Shown: positions 45,191 through 53,296, numbered from the stretch's first letter. The stretch is 64,000 bases of DNA from Bacteroidales bacterium (GCA_036794825.1 DAIRGA010000009.1:1697-65696), one strand, 5' to 3'. Notes: generated from the letters alone by a model not told the origin. A program made the numbers and translations.

Positions 45191-45922
45191 CTATTTGCCA
45201 GAATTAAATTTTACGATTTTTTCCCAGTCAATTTCGCCGCTTGGTTTGCAGTAATCTATTGCGAATTCTAAGACAAACTTGTTGATCATCTGAGCGTAAG
45301 AAACATTGAAATCGTCATTTCTTTCTTTTGCCGTATGACCCAAAGGTTTGATAATGTCAAGGTAAAGGTTTGGATTGCCTGAAATGAACTCCCAGAATTG
45401 CTGACCACAATACTTGAAATAGTCTCCTTTATCCGGATTGTTGTTTCTTCCATAGCAGCAACCATTGATTGCCATGATATTGAGGTTAGAATTGCTTGTC
45501 CGTAAGGTCTTTTTTGCAGTCCTGAAATCGGAAATCATTTTTTTGACCTGAGAAGCATTTCCCCAATTTGGCCCTGATTTTATTGCAATGATAAAACGCA
45601 ATCCATCTTTTTCAAATTCCAAATCAATTCCTTCTATACCTGACTTATAGCCATTATAAACCTTCGAATTGACAAAAATTGCGAGACCCTCGAGCCAGTC
45701 GCCAAAAATGGTCTCCTCATTTGACGAAATAAACGCATCCACCAGATTCTTGACAAGTTGCTCAGAAGTCAGAATATATTTTGCTTTAAAGAGGTAAGGG
45801 TTTTTCCTTTTTAAAACATCTGAAAGCTTGAGCCCATTGAGCTTTTCAATTCGTTTCTTGTGAAATACTTCGATATTCTTTTCAACATATTCAAATACAT
45901 CTGCTAATTCCAACTGCTTCAT
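45191..45922 (-). CDS. Putative type II restriction endonuclease (by context and a PD-(D/E)xK-like motif)
   Basis: 243 aa, downstream of and co-oriented with a DNA methyltransferase. GIEGIDLEFEKDGLRFIIAIKSGPNWGN could supply a D...E-x-K or (A/I)-I-K catalytic core. The region is AT-rich. I have no family assignment I can verify from memory (PmeII- or TdeIII-like are guesses). Confidence 0.55.
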   Translation of the reverse strand: MKQLELADVFEYVEKNIEVFHKKRIEKLNGLKLSDVLKRKNPYLFKAKYILTSEQLVKNLVDAFISSNEETIFGDWLEGLAIFVNSKVYNGYKSGIEGIDLEFEKDGLRFIIAIKSGPNWGNASQVKKMISDFRTAKKTLRTSNSNLNIMAINGCCYGRNNNPDKGDYFKYCGQQFWEFISGNPNLYLDIIKPLGHTAKERNDDFNVSYAQMINKFVLEFAIDYCKPSGEIDWEKIVKFNSGK

Positions 45923-46113: not shown

Positions 46114-46980
46114 TTAAGCTTTTTCATCTGGATTTTGCCCGTAAAGTGTCTGAGAATCAAAAAGTACCCACTCTGGTTGAACTATCTGGCTTTTAACCAT
46201 TTCGACATATTCAGGCACGATTTCGATTCCGATGGAATTCCTTCTCATCCTTTTAGCCACAATCAACGTTGTTCCAGAACCTGCGAATGGATCTAAAACT
46301 GTGTCATTAACTTTGGTAAACAACCTGATAAACCATTCGGGCAGGCCTTCGGGAAATGCAGCGCTGTGGTTCTTGTTACTACACTCTGTGGCCAGGTGAA
46401 GTACATTGGTAGGGTAGGCCATATCTCTCGAAAGCCAGTTAGAAATGTTTTTTCCAAAGCCGCTGCCAACTCTCGAATTGTCCCTGATTTTGTCGGTTTC
46501 TGACAATTTTTTCAAACGTGTCTTTGCCCAATCACCCATCGGAACCATCACTGCCTCCTGGTTCATGTAAAAGTGCCTGCTTTTGTTGAATTGCAGCAAC
46601 CGCTCCCATGAATCTCTGAAACGGTTAGGCCATTTTCCGGGATAGGAGTTTTTTTTGTGCCAGATAAATTCTTCAGTCCACAACCAACCCTGCTTACGCA
46701 TTTCAAGAATGAGCTCGATAACATATGTACTTCTCTCGCCATTCATCACTTTTTCCTTGATATTGAGGATGAAAGTGCCGGTTGGCTTCAGGACTCGCAG
46801 AAGTTCAGCAGCAATTGGCCGAAACCATTCGACATATTTATCGGGATGAATACCACCGTAAGTGTTCTTTCGCTGATCAGCATATGGTGGTGAAGTTACG
46901 ATCAGATCAATGGAATTTTCCTCCAGTTTTTGAAGTTCTTCAAGGCAATCCCCTAAAAATATGTCACTCCTGATTTCCAT
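46114..46980 (-). CDS. DNA methyltransferase, beta-class N4-cytosine/N6-adenine (motif IV before motif I)
   Basis: Motif IV is IVTSPPYAD and the AdoMet motif I is VLDPFAGSGTT near the C-terminus, which is the ParB-less N4/N6 MTase layout. SPPY favours m4C but does not prove it. I use the ATG at 46980; the track start at 46992 is a TTG. Confidence 0.9.
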   Translation of the reverse strand: MEIRSDIFLGDCLEELQKLEENSIDLIVTSPPYADQRKNTYGGIHPDKYVEWFRPIAAELLRVLKPTGTFILNIKEKVMNGERSTYVIELILEMRKQGWLWTEEFIWHKKNSYPGKWPNRFRDSWERLLQFNKSRHFYMNQEAVMVPMGDWAKTRLKKLSETDKIRDNSRVGSGFGKNISNWLSRDMAYPTNVLHLATECSNKNHSAAFPEGLPEWFIRLFTKVNDTVLDPFAGSGTTLIVAKRMRRNSIGIEIVPEYVEMVKSQIVQPEWVLFDSQTLYGQNPDEKA

Positions 46981-47000
46981 GATTTTTGACAATACAAGCG

Positions 47001-47008: not shown

Positions 47009-47120
47009 GACTATTTTGTTCACACTGGCCGGACTGTGATCACCAAGGTTGGTAGAATTAAAAAACAGGAACGATTAAATCATTCCTGTTCTAACTTATT
47101 GTAAAATAGTTGTTTGTGAT

Positions 47121-50100
47121 CTATTTTTCTTTAGTCATCATCTCAAACTCCTCATCAAACCGTTTGTTGACGATGTCGCAGCCGTGGCGGAACATCAGGT
47201 TGTAATTATCATTTGTAGTGATTTTGAAATTGTAGGTCATCTTTTCTTTGTCTGATGCGGGCGGAAGGAGGCTGATAAATTCGTTGAGAGCATCTTCTTT
47301 GTCTGCAATCCCATTCAACCCGAATTCCTTCATCAGGGCAATCAACTGGTCAAAGGAAGTTTTCTCCATTGCCGATTGCATCTGCTTTTCGAATTTTTGC
47401 AACTTGCGCTGGGTTGTGGTAAAACTTCCGCCAATTTCGAAGGGTAGGGAAGCTGGTAAAACCAGATCGGCCATTTTTGCGGTATCGGTCATAAAATAAT
47501 CCTGAACCATCAGAAATTCTGCTTTTCCAAGCCATTCGCTTACCTGAAGGCGGTTGATGGCACAACCGACCGGGTCCTCTCCAAAGATGAAGATGTTTTT
47601 GAGTAATCCGCTAATCATTAGTTTGTAAGGGCTGTTGATCTGGCCTGGCAAATCATTGACACCCCATTTCTTTTGCAGATTTTGGATCACCCCCGGTGAG
47701 TCAAGGTTGCGGAAACCAGGAGCTATTTTGTGGCATCCGCCCATGTCAATCACACCCTGAGAGTTATTTTTTTCCTTCAACGCTATTAATCCCTGGGCTG
47801 TTTTTCCCATTTTTCCGGTGATGAGTGAAAGATTAATCAGTTCGTAATTGGTATTAGAGGATATCTCTTTTTCGGGGAAGATGAGGATGGCGTTCTTTTC
47901 CTCATTAAAGGTGCGGGCAAACTGTGCCAGTGATTCCATGCAACCAACACCTGATTTTTCAAAAAATTCATCGAAATCCTCTGCCAGCAGCGCTTTGCGG
48001 AAATCTTCGAAGCCCTCCGTTCTTCCGTTGATAAAGAGCTGATTCTGTTGTTCACCCTGCAACAGGTAATAGTTGACTGCTTTAAAGAAGTGGTAGTAAG
48101 AGCTGATATGATAAGCCTTGTCAACTTTGTGCTCAATGCTGGTTTCGTCAGAAGTAGTGATGATTTCAACCGGCACATGATAACAATGCCGGGCATTGAA
48201 AACCATGTGATTAACCAGTGGGTGATCCATATGCAGGTTGGAGCCTAACAGGTAAATCCTGCTTGCTTCTTTAATCTGCTCAAAAGGAACCGAAATCGTT
48301 GCATTACTGCCATAGCCATCACCTCTGCCAAAATATTGAAAACTGCTGATGTTGTTGGTTTTAGCCCCGGCACGGGCAAGTTTTTGAATAAGGTAAATCT
48401 CCTCATTGGTTAAGCGTGCTCCGGCAAAAAATGCGCTTTGCTCTGGATCAACGTTTTTTATTTTATTGACTATCAGGCTAAAGGCCTCATTAAAGGAGAC
48501 TGGTTTGAATTCTCCGTCCAATTTGCGCATAGGTTGTATTATCCGGGTGGGGTCGTTCAGGTATTTGTACCCGAATTTAGCCTGGCGACTTATGTTTCCG
48601 TCTTTATTCACCTCGCCTAATTTACCCGATGCACGCATAAAGAATCCGGCTTTATGATGCAGTTGCATTTCAAAACCCTCTGATCCCATGTTGTCAATCA
48701 CTTCGATGGTCTCCATTTTCACCGGGCCGGGTTTGAACGGAACATTCTCACTGATGGCTGCAGTGGGGCACGTTTCGATGCAAAGCCCGCAGCATTCGCA
48801 TGTGGTGTGGAGCAGCGAGTTGCCCATAGTTGGCGCCACGAAGGTGCTGAATCCCCGGTTTACCAAACCGAGAGCATTGGCGCCGGCAACCTCGCGGCAA
48901 ATGCGGATGCAACGCGAACAAAGTATACATTTATTATTGTCAATTTCGATGTAAGGATGGCGGAAGTCAACCTCATATTCGTTGTGGGCGCCTTCGAAGC
49001 GGTTCTGCTCAGCGCCATATTCGGTGCAGTACTTTTTGAGATCACAGGTAAATAATTCAACGCATCCGCATTCGAGACATCTTGCGGTTTCTTTACGGGC
49101 AATTTCTTCATTTTCATAACCAAGTTCCACTTCGTCAAAGTTCAGGCGCTGGTTTGGATCGAGCGTTGGCATTTCCTGGCGCAACTGTCGTTGGTACCTG
49201 CCTGCATAACTCTCTGGATTCTGCTCGTGGAAATTGGCTTTTTTACTTAGAAATTCCTTCTTTTCAGGTATTAAAGGTTGGTTGGTTAGAAACTGGTGAC
49301 AACTGCGGGAAGCGATTTTAGCCTGGGCAATGGCTTCGATGATCGTGGCGGGGCCAGTAACCCCATCTCCGGCGGCAAACATTGACTGGATGCCGGTTTG
49401 AAGTGTCTCACGGTTGCAATCAATATCACCCCAGCGATTTACTTTCAACTGGCCGCTGGTTGCTGATGAGTTCACATCTTCTAGGAAATTGACATCGGTT
49501 TTTTGCCCTATAGCTGCCAGGATGTAATCCACCTTTACATCAAAATCGGAACCTTCTTTAGGTACAGGTCTGCGGCGTCCTGAAGCATCCGGCTCTCCCA
49601 ACTCCATGGTCAGGCAGGTGATCGAAGCTACGTTCCCGTGTTCGTCTTTATTTACCTTTTTTGGATTGGTGAGGAACATGTATTCTACACCCTCAAGTTT
49701 CGATTCGTGAATCTCGATGGGATTGGCCGGCATCTCTTTCTCTGTGCGGCGATAGATCACATACACCTTGTCAGCGCCGCATCGCATAGATGTCCGGCAG
49801 CAATCCATGGCGGTGTTTCCACCGCCGACTACGGCAACCGTTTTACCTTTAAAATCGTATCGCTGGCCGGTCATTTCCATATTCCGGAGGAAATCAATCC
49901 CCGAAAATACATTTCCGGCATCTTCGCCATCGCAGCCAAGCAGAGATCCCCGTTGCGATCCGATGGTCAATATTACCGAGTCGTATTCTTTCTGTAAATC
50001 AGCATAATGCAGATTGTCTCCAAATTTCTGCTGGTAAAATATCCGTGCGCCAAGCTCGGTAACAGCTGCCACTTCCTTGTCAATTATATCGTTGGGCAGC

Positions 50101-50828
50101 CGATACTCCGGAATGCCGTACCTCAGCCACCCGCCAGGCGAGGCTGATGCCTCGAAGATATCGCACTGATGGCCCTTTTGCTGCAAAAAGTAAGCACAGG
50201 AAAGACCTCCAGGACCTGCTCCGATAATGGCAACCTTTTTTCCGGTGGATGGCGCAACTTCGGGGATAAACCTTTTGGGAGAATTTAAATCAATATCGGC
50301 GGCAAATCGTTTCAAATAATCAATGCCAACACCGGTTCCTTCGCCAAGCAAATTGCGGCGACAGGCAGCTTCGCAGGGTCTTACACAAACGCGCCCACAG
50401 ATGGCTGGTAGCGGATTTACCTCTTTGATAAGTGCAATGGCTTCGGAGTATAATCCCTTCTCGATCAGCGAAATATATCCCTGTACGTCTACTCCGGCAG
50501 GGCAGGTCTCCTTGCAGGGCGCCATGCAATCGGCGTAATGGTTGCCGGCCATCAGATCGAGCGCCATTTTTCTTGCTTTCCTGATGCGGTCATTATCGGT
50601 TTCGATTTTCATTCCTTCGGAAATTCTGGTAGAGCAGGAGGGTTGTAACCCTTTGATCCCTTCCACCTCAACCACACAAACATAGCAGGAGGAGAATGGC
50701 TCCAGCCGTGGATCGCTGCAAAGCGTTGGAATATTTATTCCGTTTCGGACGGCCAGTTCAAGAATGGTTTCGCCGGGTGTACCTTTGACAATTTTGCCGT
50801 TGAGGATGGTATTAAAAGTTTCGGTCAT
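47121..50828 (-). CDS. Fusion oxidoreductase subunit: [2Fe-2S] ferredoxin domain, GltD/NfnB-like NAD(P)H-flavin module, NuoG-like Fe-S domains and a molybdopterin-oxidoreductase-like (probably cofactor-less) domain
   Basis: 1235 aa. Segments in order: CSDPRLEPFSSCYVCVVEV (2Fe-2S, aa 1-80); CMAPCKETCP...CGRVCVRPCEAAC, KKVAIIGAGPGGLSCAY and TVAVVGGGNTAMDC (GltD-like, aa ~95-510); CLECGCVELFTCD, CILCSRCIRIC and CECCGLCIETCP (NuoG-type clusters, aa ~575-700); then ~530 aa of MopB-like sequence. It is the third gene of the nuoE/nuoF-like operon. Confidence 0.85.
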   Translation of the reverse strand: MTETFNTILNGKIVKGTPGETILELAVRNGINIPTLCSDPRLEPFSSCYVCVVEVEGIKGLQPSCSTRISEGMKIETDNDRIRKARKMALDLMAGNHYADCMAPCKETCPAGVDVQGYISLIEKGLYSEAIALIKEVNPLPAICGRVCVRPCEAACRRNLLGEGTGVGIDYLKRFAADIDLNSPKRFIPEVAPSTGKKVAIIGAGPGGLSCAYFLQQKGHQCDIFEASASPGGWLRYGIPEYRLPNDIIDKEVAAVTELGARIFYQQKFGDNLHYADLQKEYDSVILTIGSQRGSLLGCDGEDAGNVFSGIDFLRNMEMTGQRYDFKGKTVAVVGGGNTAMDCCRTSMRCGADKVYVIYRRTEKEMPANPIEIHESKLEGVEYMFLTNPKKVNKDEHGNVASITCLTMELGEPDASGRRRPVPKEGSDFDVKVDYILAAIGQKTDVNFLEDVNSSATSGQLKVNRWGDIDCNRETLQTGIQSMFAAGDGVTGPATIIEAIAQAKIASRSCHQFLTNQPLIPEKKEFLSKKANFHEQNPESYAGRYQRQLRQEMPTLDPNQRLNFDEVELGYENEEIARKETARCLECGCVELFTCDLKKYCTEYGAEQNRFEGAHNEYEVDFRHPYIEIDNNKCILCSRCIRICREVAGANALGLVNRGFSTFVAPTMGNSLLHTTCECCGLCIETCPTAAISENVPFKPGPVKMETIEVIDNMGSEGFEMQLHHKAGFFMRASGKLGEVNKDGNISRQAKFGYKYLNDPTRIIQPMRKLDGEFKPVSFNEAFSLIVNKIKNVDPEQSAFFAGARLTNEEIYLIQKLARAGAKTNNISSFQYFGRGDGYGSNATISVPFEQIKEASRIYLLGSNLHMDHPLVNHMVFNARHCYHVPVEIITTSDETSIEHKVDKAYHISSYYHFFKAVNYYLLQGEQQNQLFINGRTEGFEDFRKALLAEDFDEFFEKSGVGCMESLAQFARTFNEEKNAILIFPEKEISSNTNYELINLSLITGKMGKTAQGLIALKEKNNSQGVIDMGGCHKIAPGFRNLDSPGVIQNLQKKWGVNDLPGQINSPYKLMISGLLKNIFIFGEDPVGCAINRLQVSEWLGKAEFLMVQDYFMTDTAKMADLVLPASLPFEIGGSFTTTQRKLQKFEKQMQSAMEKTSFDQLIALMKEFGLNGIADKEDALNEFISLLPPASDKEKMTYNFKITTNDNYNLMFRHGCDIVNKRFDEEFEMMTKEK

Positions 50829-50858
50829 TGTTGGTCAGGCTTAGTTTTGGTGTGAAAA

Positions 50859-52637
50859 TTAACGAAGTATAATGGCATCGAACTTACAGCGGGAGTAGCA
50901 ATCTCCGCATTTTATACAGATTTCCTGGTTGATGAAGTGAGGTGATTTTCTCTCACCGGTAATGGCATTAACCGGACATTTCCTGGCGCAAACCGTGCAG
51001 CCGGTGCATTTTTCGGCGATTATCTCATACGTGAGCAGGCTTTTGCAAACTTTGGCAGGGCATTTTTTTTCGAGGATGTGAGCCGTGTATTCATCCCTGA
51101 AATATTTAAGCGTGGTCAGAACCGGATTGGGAGCTGTTTGTCCCAGCCCGCAAAGGGATGAATCCTTGATCTGGTGGGCAAGTTCCTCGAGTGTTTCAAG
51201 GTCTTCAATTTTTCCTTTTCCTTCGGTGATGCGCTGCAATATTTCGAGCATTCTTTTGGTTCCGATCCGGCAGAAGGTGCATTTTCCGCAGCTTTCCAAC
51301 TGGGTGAAATTAAGGAAGAATTTGGCGACGTCCACCATGCAGGTATCTTCGTCCATCACCACCATACCTCCTGAACCCATGATTGCCCCGGTGGCGTTCA
51401 CTGAATCGTAATCCACTATGGTGTCGGCAAGGTATTCGGGTATGCAACCACCAGATGGGCCTCCCAGCTGAACTGCCTTAAACCGTTTTCCGCCTGGGAT
51501 TCCTCCTCCGAGCTTAAAAATGATATCACGGATGGAAATTCCCATCGGAACTTCCACCAGGCCAGAATGCTTGATTTTTCCGGCCAGTGCAAACACTTTG
51601 GTGCCTTTGCTCTTCTCGGTTCCATACCTCGAATAAGCCTCCGGACCATTGATAATGATCCATGGAATGTTAGCCCAGGTTTCGACATTGTTGATGTTGG
51701 TGGGTTTTTTCCAAAGGCCTGAAATAGCGGGAAATGGAGGTCTTTTTCTGGGCATCCCGCGCTCGCCTTCTATAGAAGCAATCAAGGCAGTTTCTTCACC
51801 GCAGACGAAAGCTCCGGCACCCTCTTTTACATAGATATCAAAACAAAAACCCTCGATTCCCAAAATATGATCTCCCAGGTAGCCATGATCACGTGCCTGG
51901 TTGATGGCGATGTTGAGTCGTTTGATGGCAAGCGGGTATTCAGCGCGGCAGTAAATCACACCCCCATTTGCTCCGATGGCATAAGCGCCGATAATCATCC
52001 CTTCGAGTACTGCGTGCGGGTCTCCTTCCAGCAGCGAACGATCCATAAATGCCCCGGGATCGCCCTCATCGGCATTACAGATGATGTACTTTTCCCTGGA
52101 TTCACTTTTTTGTGCAAAGCGCCACTTCATCCCTGTCGGGAAACCTCCGCCGCCACGACCACGCAACCCTGATTTAAGAACCATTTCGATTACCTGATCC
52201 GGGGTAATTCCCTGGTCGGCAATTTTTTTAATGGCTTCGTATCCCTGGTGGGCTTCATACTCCTCCAGCGATTCCGGGTCAATATACCCGCAATGCCGCA
52301 GAGCGATCTTCACCTGGTTATCGAAAAACAGATTATCGGGGGTTTCGAAAAGGTCGGTTTTGACAACCAGTTCCTTAACAGGTTCATGGTTAACCACATG
52401 CTTTTCCAAAACCTCCACAGCCCGGTTTTCGTCAACATTGCCATAAATGTAAGAACCCGTTTCGTCAATGATCTCTACCAGTGGTTCTCTGAAGCACATC
52501 CCGATACAGCTGGTCTTTTTCAACTCGAAATCAAGGTTTTCGGCTTTGCGCAGCTGTTCAATTTTTTGATAGGTCTTGTTTGCGCCGGCAGCAATTCCGC
52601 AACTGCCAAGGCCAACAATTACTTTGGTTTTTGTCAT
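50859..52637 (-). CDS. NuoF/HydB-type NADH-binding flavoprotein subunit with a thioredoxin-like N-terminal extension and a C-terminal 2x[4Fe-4S] ferredoxin domain
   Basis: The FMN site is GRGGGGFPTGMKW, the NADH site is ICNADEGDPGAFMDR, and the N3 cluster is ESCGKCTFCRIG...SLCGLGQT. C-terminal CTGCTVCARKCP and CIKCGDCYSRCK form two ferredoxin clusters. Confidence 0.9.
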   Translation of the reverse strand: MTKTKVIVGLGSCGIAAGANKTYQKIEQLRKAENLDFELKKTSCIGMCFREPLVEIIDETGSYIYGNVDENRAVEVLEKHVVNHEPVKELVVKTDLFETPDNLFFDNQVKIALRHCGYIDPESLEEYEAHQGYEAIKKIADQGITPDQVIEMVLKSGLRGRGGGGFPTGMKWRFAQKSESREKYIICNADEGDPGAFMDRSLLEGDPHAVLEGMIIGAYAIGANGGVIYCRAEYPLAIKRLNIAINQARDHGYLGDHILGIEGFCFDIYVKEGAGAFVCGEETALIASIEGERGMPRKRPPFPAISGLWKKPTNINNVETWANIPWIIINGPEAYSRYGTEKSKGTKVFALAGKIKHSGLVEVPMGISIRDIIFKLGGGIPGGKRFKAVQLGGPSGGCIPEYLADTIVDYDSVNATGAIMGSGGMVVMDEDTCMVDVAKFFLNFTQLESCGKCTFCRIGTKRMLEILQRITEGKGKIEDLETLEELAHQIKDSSLCGLGQTAPNPVLTTLKYFRDEYTAHILEKKCPAKVCKSLLTYEIIAEKCTGCTVCARKCPVNAITGERKSPHFINQEICIKCGDCYSRCKFDAIILR

Positions 52638-52674
52638 TTTAGTTAGGATGAGTATCGGTGTTTTAAATTTAGGT

Positions 52675-53202
52675 TTAATTATTGGTGTTCATCTCATTGA
52701 TCCTGATATCTTTAATAATTCTCACTGCTTCATTGCCGGTGAGTTTTCCGTAGGTGTTATCCTGAATCATCATAACAGGCGCCAATGAACAGCAGCCCAG
52801 GCATGCCACCGATTCGAGGGTGAAAAGCCGATCCTCGGTGGTTTCGCCGTCATGGATTTTAAGAGCTTCTTCGAGCGCTTCACTGATCTTCGATGCATTC
52901 TGCACATGACAGGCGGTGCCGTGGCATACTTTGATGATGTATTTACCCACCGGTTTGAGCCTGAACTGTGCGTAAAAGGTAGCAACCCCATACATATCGC
53001 TTAGGCTTAAGCCGGTTTCGATCGAAATTTTTTCGAAAACATCTTTCGGGATGTAGCCGTAAATCGTCTGAGCGCCCTGCAGTAGTGGGATCATATTGCC
53101 TTTTTTACCCTTGTATTTTTCGATCAGGTGATCTATCTGTGCCAGGTCAATGGGATCGTTTACCTGCACCTCCGTCCGGGTATTAATTCTTTCGATGCGC
53201 AT
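52675..53202 (-). CDS. NuoE/HydC-type [2Fe-2S] thioredoxin-like ferredoxin subunit
   Basis: VCHGTACHV ... ESVACLGCCSLAPVM gives the C-x4-C ... C-x3-C pattern of the 24-kDa subunit family. It is the first gene of the operon. Confidence 0.9.
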   Translation of the reverse strand: MRIERINTRTEVQVNDPIDLAQIDHLIEKYKGKKGNMIPLLQGAQTIYGYIPKDVFEKISIETGLSLSDMYGVATFYAQFRLKPVGKYIIKVCHGTACHVQNASKISEALEEALKIHDGETTEDRLFTLESVACLGCCSLAPVMMIQDNTYGKLTGNEAVRIIKDIRINEMNTNN

Positions 53203-53280
53203 GATGTAGTTGTATTTTTTGAGGCCATAAAAGTACGTATTGTTTACCTTGTCTAATCAATTGAATAGCAATTTATAAGC

Positions 53281-53296
53281 AATCTAAATTTAGATT
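53281..53296. promoter_or_regulatory. Perfect 16-nt palindrome aatctaaatttagatt; candidate operator between the nuoE-like operon and nhaC
   Basis: The reverse complement of aatctaaa is tttagatt. It is centred ~86 nt upstream of the nuoE-like ATG (53202) and ~210 nt upstream of nhaC. Confidence 0.3.

Follow-up and report, generated by a model that had tools for sequence, protein, structure and literature searches.

Background

Heterotrimeric electron-bifurcating transhydrogenases of the Stn/NfnABC type have been purified, assayed and structurally solved from S. ovata (PMC7483475), C. saccharolyticus (PMC11829005) and T. sibiricus (PMC12018979). The reaction measured for S. ovata StnABC is 2 NADPH + NAD+ + Fd(ox) <-> 2 NADP+ + NADH + Fd(red), where Fd is ferredoxin (PMC7483475). 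Its large subunit, StnC, has 1172 amino acids (aa) and ends in a catalytically inactive FdhF-like domain (residues 683-1172), which mediates tetramer contacts (PMC10482914). Here we describe an operon of this type in a 64,000-nucleotide stretch of DNA from a Bacteroidales bacterium (GCA_036794825.1 DAIRGA010000009.1:1697-65696), which we call the window and number from its first letter. A first-pass annotation, made from the sequence alone, had recognized a NuoE/NuoF-type operon with a NuoG-like fusion as its third gene, and had likened it to Stn while offering two departures from that system, an additional domain and its occurrence in Bacteroidota. The Stn-type identity stands; both departures fall away, as shown below.

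Identity of the operon

The three genes lie on the minus strand and encode a NuoE-like subunit (StnA/NfnC/BfuC; 175 aa, 52675-53202), a NuoF/HydB-like flavoprotein, here the B subunit (StnB/NfnB/BfuB; 592 aa, 50859-52637), and a large subunit (StnC/NfnA/BfuA; 1235 aa, 47121-50828). These open reading frames are as the first-pass annotation had them, and none contains an internal stop codon, so there is no in-frame TGA.

All three proteins match, along their full length, the corresponding chains of the complexes solved by cryo-EM. The large subunit scores 728 bits against 9bov_A of C. saccharolyticus NfnABC (PDB 9BOV/9BP5), 697 bits against 8oh5_C of S. ovata StnABC (PDB 8OH5/8OH9) and 584 bits against 9n5u_A of T. 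sibiricus NfnABC (PDB 9N5U/9N5V). C. saccharolyticus also provides the best match of the NuoE-like subunit (186 bits for 9bov_C, compared with 174 bits for 9n5u_C and 161 bits for 8oh5_A), and T. sibiricus that of the B subunit, which aligns over its full length with 9n5u_B (897 bits), 9bov_B (865 bits) and 8oh5_B (863 bits). For the B subunit, 863-897 bits against Nfn-type BfuB subunits compare with 647-786 bits for hydrogenase-type BfuB, 412 bits for formate dehydrogenase beta and 380 bits for Nqo1. With the B genes that adjoin Stn-type large subunits in other genomes it shares 71-88% identity; against the HydB paralogues of its own genome the figure falls to 48-56% (37-56% over all in-genome paralogues). 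By these comparisons the three genes are orthologous to those of Stn/NfnABC, and the module that had been described as linking an NADPH site and an NADH site through iron-sulfur (Fe-S) clusters is borne out by full-length matches to solved enzymes.

The operon thus very probably encodes an orthologue of the Stn/NfnABC (Bfu-family) bifurcating/confurcating transhydrogenase, which would catalyze the reaction given above for S. ovata. What we say of the activity, reaction direction and oligomeric state of this complex is reasoned by analogy. Several points weigh against the identification. No Bacteroidota enzyme is among the assayed members of the family; the direction and the electron carrier, whether ferredoxin or flavodoxin, are ones that we infer; and the large subunit is without the off-path [4Fe-4S] cluster A5 (C1 in the S. 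ovata naming, distinct from cluster C1 of the NuoE-like subunit), whose ligand cysteines, when exchanged for alanine in S. ovata, proved necessary for correct assembly.

Domains and cofactor ligands

A Pfam search bore out every domain described in the first-pass annotation. The 175-aa protein matches 2Fe-2S_thioredx (E-value 3e-51), the domain of the gating [2Fe-2S] cluster C1, and its cysteines 93, 98, 134, 137 and 138 are invariant in 73 of 73 orthologues. The 592-aa protein contains Complex1_51K and NADH_4Fe-4S domains, a C-terminal Fer4 pair (residues 537-588) and a weak thioredoxin-like match at its N-terminus (residues 25-79), confirming the HydB/HndC-type layout proposed for it. The flavin mononucleotide (FMN)/NAD(H) site is marked by the FMN loop GRGGGGFPTG at residues 160-169, one of the B-subunit features kept in 74-77 of 77 orthologues. 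Invariant throughout 77 orthologues are Cys450/453/456/496 (cluster B1), His520/Cys526/Cys531 (metal site B2) and the two sets of the C-terminal 2x[4Fe-4S] ferredoxin-binding domain, Cys544/547/550/554 and Cys574/577/580/584 (B3/B4). Conservation is nearly as complete (74-75 of 77) for Cys13/44/48 at the N-terminal metal site B5, a three-cysteine pattern shared with C. saccharolyticus NfnABC, where it binds Zn (PMC11829005). The B1-B5 residues associated with bifurcating members of the family are thus all present.

In the large subunit, an N-terminal [2Fe-2S] domain (residues 1-100, 50529-50828; Fer2_4 at 9-79; Cys37/48/51/65) is split from the NuoG-type clusters by an NfnL/GltD-like module, as had been described. 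This insert (residues 101-560, 49149-50528; Fer4_20 at 101-180, Pyr_redox_2 at 197-503) scores 314 bits against NfnB 4ylf_B. It holds ligands for two [4Fe-4S] clusters (Cys101/105/109/144/148/152/156 and Lys173), a flavin adenine dinucleotide (FAD) fold with GAGPGG at 203-208, and an NADPH fold with GGGNTA at 335-340 and YRR at 359-361. Downstream, residues 580-700 (48729-49091; Fer4_Nqo3 at 625-692) carry the NuoG-type [4Fe-4S] ligands, assigned from invariant cysteines and motif comparison with 9n5u_A: Cys584/587/589/595, Cys634/637/640 with Cys687, and Cys677/680/683 with Cys644, the last being the off-path cluster A4, which is kept here. Together these are the cysteine ligands of six Fe-S clusters, all invariant among 112 full-length database homologues, and they include every on-path ligand from FAD to the B subunit (A7-A6-A3-A2-A1). 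In an alignment of 80 sequences, comprising the window protein and those of 79 related loci, Lys173 and YRR 359-361 are conserved in 79-80 (Lys173 in 79). From its place in an aligned LKRF motif, Lys173 is a candidate for the published lysine ligand of cluster A7, equivalent to K170 in S. ovata and K165 in T. sibiricus.

S. ovata StnABC (PMC7483475, PMC10482914) and this complex therefore agree in their three subunits and large-subunit layout, and also in the on-path ligands, the lysine ligand candidate and the motifs for FMN, FAD and NAD(P)H; C. saccharolyticus NfnABC (PMC11829005) shares the architecture. The window protein differs from StnC in lacking the four cysteines of the terminal off-path cluster, in being about 60 aa longer and in having some extra formate dehydrogenase-like segments. 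Classical NfnSL (NfnAB; PDB 4YLF, 5JCA) performs the same overall reaction, and its NfnL subunit is homologous to large-subunit residues 100-520 (287-314 bits), but its bifurcation site, a single FAD in NfnL, is unrelated, its NfnL is partnered by NfnS, and it has no NuoE/NuoF module. Bifurcating [FeFe]-hydrogenases of the HydABC type (PDB 7P5H, 8A6T, 7Q4V) have a homologous BC core and presumably the same flavobicluster mechanism, whereas in their A subunit an H-cluster domain takes the place of the NfnL insert and FdhF-like domain.

Judging from the homologous solved enzymes, NADP(H) would react at the FAD of the NfnL-like module. Its two NfnL-type [4Fe-4S] clusters would pass electrons on to the NuoG-type clusters, and these through the N-terminal [2Fe-2S] cluster to the B subunit. 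There the B1-FMN-C1 'flavobicluster' would split or merge electron pairs between two partners, NAD(H) at the FMN and ferredoxin at the C-terminal B3/B4 domain, and movement of the [2Fe-2S] cluster of the NuoE-like subunit would act as the gate.

The same modules might instead form a non-bifurcating NADPH:acceptor oxidoreductase, akin to the Nso sulfur/polysulfide reductase or the SfrAB metal reductase, in which NADPH reduces an external acceptor. Such fusions of GltD and NuoG do exist, SfrAB among them, and the T. litoralis homologue entered the literature as an NADPH-dependent sulfur oxidoreductase. Here, however, the bifurcating BC core is complete, with the B3/B4 ferredoxin domain, the B2 and B5 sites and the gating cluster C1; the Nso-type archaeal homologue of T. 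sibiricus has been shown to be a bifurcating NfnABC (PMC12018979), and the authors of the Stn study reinterpret Nso likewise (PMC7483475). We regard an oxidoreductase of this kind as improbable.

The FdhF-like domain

Residues 704-1235 of the large subunit (47124-48719; Molybdopterin at 762-1165) form an FdhF/MopB-like domain made up of domains I-III only. The first-pass annotation took this domain of about 530 aa for an addition to the Stn layout, but it is also found in S. ovata StnC and in C. saccharolyticus NfnA (1178 aa), where it is catalytically inactive. The published large subunits have this same layout, so nothing has been added here.

In an AlphaFold2 model of residues 560-1235, about 704-1235 adopt a confidently predicted MopB fold, with a predicted local distance difference test (pLDDT) score mostly above 90; over the first 144 residues, the Fe-S segment, pLDDT is about 30 and the geometry is unusable for cluster-to-cluster distances. 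In a Foldseek search, the MopB domain model superposed on FdhH and other formate dehydrogenase structures over about 510 columns, with a root-mean-square deviation of 2.8-3.2 A, and also matched NfnA and StnC. The catalytic residues are absent: the Cys/Sec-His pair of true formate dehydrogenases (Sec, selenocysteine) aligns with Phe833-Gly834, and the catalytic arginine position is a lysine. Across the alignment, 75 of the 80 sequences have Leu, Val, Met or Phe at the Cys/Sec position. The large subunit has no Pfam match to Molybdop_Fe4S4 (PF04879) or Molydop_binding (PF01568), both of which are found in the true formate dehydrogenase of the same genome. That enzyme, on another contig, served as a positive control and has an in-frame TGA at the catalytic position, in the context CARL-TGA(Sec)-HS. 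Its gene (locus at contig C20:74976-79447) stands ahead of genes for a fused NuoE-NuoF protein (576 aa) and an MFS-type transporter.

Could this domain nevertheless retain a catalytic or cofactor-binding function, which would turn the complex from a pure transhydrogenase into a substrate-linked Bfu enzyme? Its well-ordered predicted fold lies equally near true formate dehydrogenases and Stn/Nfn in structure, and it keeps some formate dehydrogenase-like segments that the Firmicutes enzymes lack. Yet the catalytic Cys/Sec, His and Arg are replaced by Phe, Gly and Lys, the protein has no domain IV (Molydop_binding), and A5 is missing, hence no cluster wires the pocket to the chain; the genuine Sec-containing enzyme of this genome has the catalytic residues, domain IV and the Fe4S4 domain. 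An active domain is thus highly improbable, more so than the acceptor oxidoreductase considered above. Instead, the domain is probably a well-preserved pseudo-enzyme and scaffold, which in the Stn-type complex would have no catalytic role and whose own off-path [4Fe-4S] cluster has also been lost in this lineage.

The names given by automatic annotation, 'formate dehydrogenase major subunit' or 'putative NADPH-dependent glutamate synthase small subunit', or a hydrogenase, follow partial profile matches that all fall below the curated NCBIfam cut-offs (248 bits against 666 for the formate dehydrogenase alpha profile, 639 against 916 for GltD/PRK12814), and can be dismissed given the replaced active site and missing formate dehydrogenase domains, the neighbors (NuoF-like and DNA methyltransferase genes, nothing GltB-like) and the lack of any match in the operon to the H-cluster domain Fe_hyd_lg_C (PF02906), which the three [FeFe]-hydrogenases of this genome match at 268-327 bits. 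The absence of H-cluster motifs noted on first reading is in line with this result.

Loss of cluster A5

The MopB-type motif C-x2-C-x3-C...C of C. saccharolyticus and S. ovata is replaced in the window protein by a degenerate [4Fe-4S] site (residues 712-747, 48588-48695), with Asp712, Gly715, Phe719 and Ser747 at the ligand positions. The protein has ligands for six clusters, compared with the seven of C. saccharolyticus NfnA, which include A5. The lost site is A5, equivalent to S. ovata C1 and NuoG N7, because T. sibiricus NfnA has this motif, and the cluster published as missing from it, A4, is the second ferredoxin-type one. The two proteins are thus in reverse states. The window's large subunit has the A4 ligands, no A5 ligands and a full-length FdhF-like domain, whereas T. 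sibiricus NfnA (955-963 aa) has A5, no A4 and a shortened FdhF-like domain, in a monomeric heterotrimer. That complex is nonetheless active (PMC12018979), so having both A4 and A5 is not universal in the family.

In homologues of the large subunit the A5 ligands are present all or none. All four cysteines are found in 83 of the 112 database homologues and in 61 of the 80 aligned sequences; the remaining sequences (19 in the alignment) have none. The replacements vary by group, with DGFS, DGVG, SGED, DSIS and STEG among the patterns. On a tree built without the motif columns, ignoring one locus with an abnormally long branch (L043, where the wrong open reading frame was probably picked), the A5 state requires six changes, of which at least three are forced by well-supported branches alone. 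The window protein falls in a 100%-supported clade of nine sequences, all without A5. Off-path clusters of this kind vary elsewhere too. N7 of NuoG/Nqo3 in complex I, which is membrane-bound, non-bifurcating and without an NfnL insert, is this same MopB-type [4Fe-4S] cluster, likewise off-path; complex I lineages both with and without it exist, a pattern that the loss of A5 repeats.

Studies of S. ovata call the C1 branch a non-functional evolutionary remnant as regards electron transfer, and yet the Cys-to-Ala exchange there prevented correct assembly (PMC10482914). The existence of natural A5-less enzymes with all their other features conserved suggests that this dependence is specific to its context. 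We propose tentatively, and with more doubt than confidence, that in Bacteroidales Stn large subunits A5 was lost cleanly and repeatedly, the four cysteines together and at least three times, under otherwise obvious constraint. This would be the mirror image of the archaeal loss of A4, and the cluster would be dispensable in other backgrounds. The A5-less variants may also assemble differently, for example not as a D2 tetramer.

Distribution

Occurrence in Bacteroidota, the second proposed departure from Stn, does not set this operon apart, as Nfn-type BfuB subunits had already been listed in Bacteroidetes by Schut et al. (2022) and the enzyme is frequent in the window's order. Among 301 genomes drawn evenly across the order, 116 (85 of 209 genera) have a strong match, defined as E <= 1e-150; most of these are full-length, with 55-73% identity. 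Carriers include Lentimicrobiaceae, Tenuifilaceae, Rikenellaceae and Marinilabiliales metagenome-assembled genomes (MAGs), and the cultured Perlabentimonas gracilis. The idea that the enzyme is common throughout the phylum was rejected, the full-length form being present in only 5 of the 401 genomes of a phylum-wide sample; it is common only within the order.

Shorter relatives of the large subunit, 667-1024 aa overall, occur in one family of the phylum sample (f25; genomes of 1.8-2.8 Mb) in two forms. One has about 1000 aa and matches residues 1 to about 760-818; the other has 667-821 aa, matches residues 1 to about 650 and, like NCBIfam PRK12814, has no FdhF-like domain. Three loci with large subunits 59-65% identical to that of the window bear non-Bacteroidota labels (L014, L037 and L053; Thiohalospira sp., Oscillospiraceae and Rhodothermaceae MAGs), which could reflect mis-binned contigs or horizontal transfer.

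Operon structure and upstream region

The gene order C-B-A is kept in 74 of 80 related loci, and the remaining six are interrupted by contig ends. A terminator-like hairpin with a 14-bp stem and a T tail (47062-47092, minus strand) lies 29 nucleotides past the stop codon of the large subunit and is likely the end of the operon. The flanking genes are unrelated: an NhaC-type antiporter upstream and, downstream, an N4/N6 DNA methyltransferase, an EcoO109I-type restriction enzyme and tpiA. Given the hairpin directly after the last gene and these unrelated neighbors, the unit is a self-contained three-gene operon. The methyltransferase (46114-46992) and the EcoO109I-family endonuclease (45191-45922) form a type II restriction-modification pair, on the minus strand, between the operon terminator and tpiA.

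The intergenic region 5' of the operon has diverged among close relatives except for two islands. The first, TACTTTTA (53228-53235, minus strand), lies 26 nucleotides 5' of the start codon and is identical in the window and six close relatives. It fits seven of the eight positions of TAnnTTTG, which we take to be the consensus of the Bacteroidota -7 box, and is likely such a promoter element. The second contains AATCTAAATTTAGATT (53281-53296, minus strand), a perfect 16-nucleotide palindrome about 94 nucleotides 5' of the operon start codon. Reading from 53296 to 53281, it is 14/16 identical at the same offset (-93 to -96) in three loci (L001, L003 and L004) and 12-13/16 identical at -93 in two more (L002 and L008); the palindrome is absent in more distant clades. 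We consider it a candidate binding site for a regulator. A scan for sigma-70 promoters found sites no more numerous than in shuffled sequence.

Genome context and physiological role

The genome, 4.8 Mb and 98.9% complete, encodes a nifJ-type pyruvate:ferredoxin oxidoreductase (PFOR; 1952 bits), an rnf-like cluster with RnfC and three HydABC-type hydrogenase loci. We did not find zwf (glucose-6-phosphate dehydrogenase) or PntB, although the search did not extend to other NADPH sources, NADP-dependent malic enzyme and isocitrate dehydrogenase among them; nor was an NfnSL-type gene found in the genome. With PFOR, Rnf and hydrogenases present and zwf, PntB and NfnSL not found, the operon would be the obvious route from reduced ferredoxin and NADH to NADPH. 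In acetogens, Stn and Nfn are nearly mutually exclusive (PMC7483475), and the absence of NfnSL beside a Stn-type operon is consistent with this report. Whereas S. ovata is an acetogen, the host of the window is a fermentative member of the Bacteroidales, and in such an anaerobe the physiological direction would likely be confurcation, with reduced ferredoxin from PFOR and NADH together reducing NADP+ for biosynthesis.

The genome's only other NfnL-like gene, in the locus at contig C38:50189-54955, was considered as NfnSL or GltD and rejected. It encodes a 1096-aa YgfK-like fusion, with a DHOD-like N-terminus, a GltD-like module and a C-terminal Fer4 region, and is followed by a 490-aa protein. 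The HydABC loci are at C27:13706-17884, C29:48458-52965 and C61:4014-7486. In the C61 set the NuoF-like subunit is short (393 aa) and has neither the N- nor the C-terminal Fe-S domains, and the HydA reads TSCSP where TSCCP is usual; the C27 HydA reads SSNCP. These may be non-bifurcating or sensory variants.

Conclusions

The enzyme encoded in the window is an ordinary, as yet uncharacterised addition to a family whose structure is already solved; its minor natural variation lies in one off-path cluster. The finding matters mainly for annotation: the names that databases give to these proteins are 'formate dehydrogenase major subunit', 'FAD-dependent oxidoreductase' and 'glutamate synthase small subunit', when each is actually the large subunit of a ferredoxin-dependent transhydrogenase. 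The natural A5-less variants are a minor but usable resource on why Bfu enzymes keep off-path clusters. If the proposed repeated loss is true, they would be a ready-made test of the purpose of the 'remnant' clusters and of the dead FdhF domain. About 39% of the species sampled across the order carry the enzyme. In genomes that, like the present one, are without the oxidative pentose-phosphate pathway, PntAB and NfnSL, it is probably the main link between the ferredoxin, NADH and NADPH pools, and in this genome probably a main source of NADPH, which bears on metabolic models of anaerobic environmental Bacteroidales.

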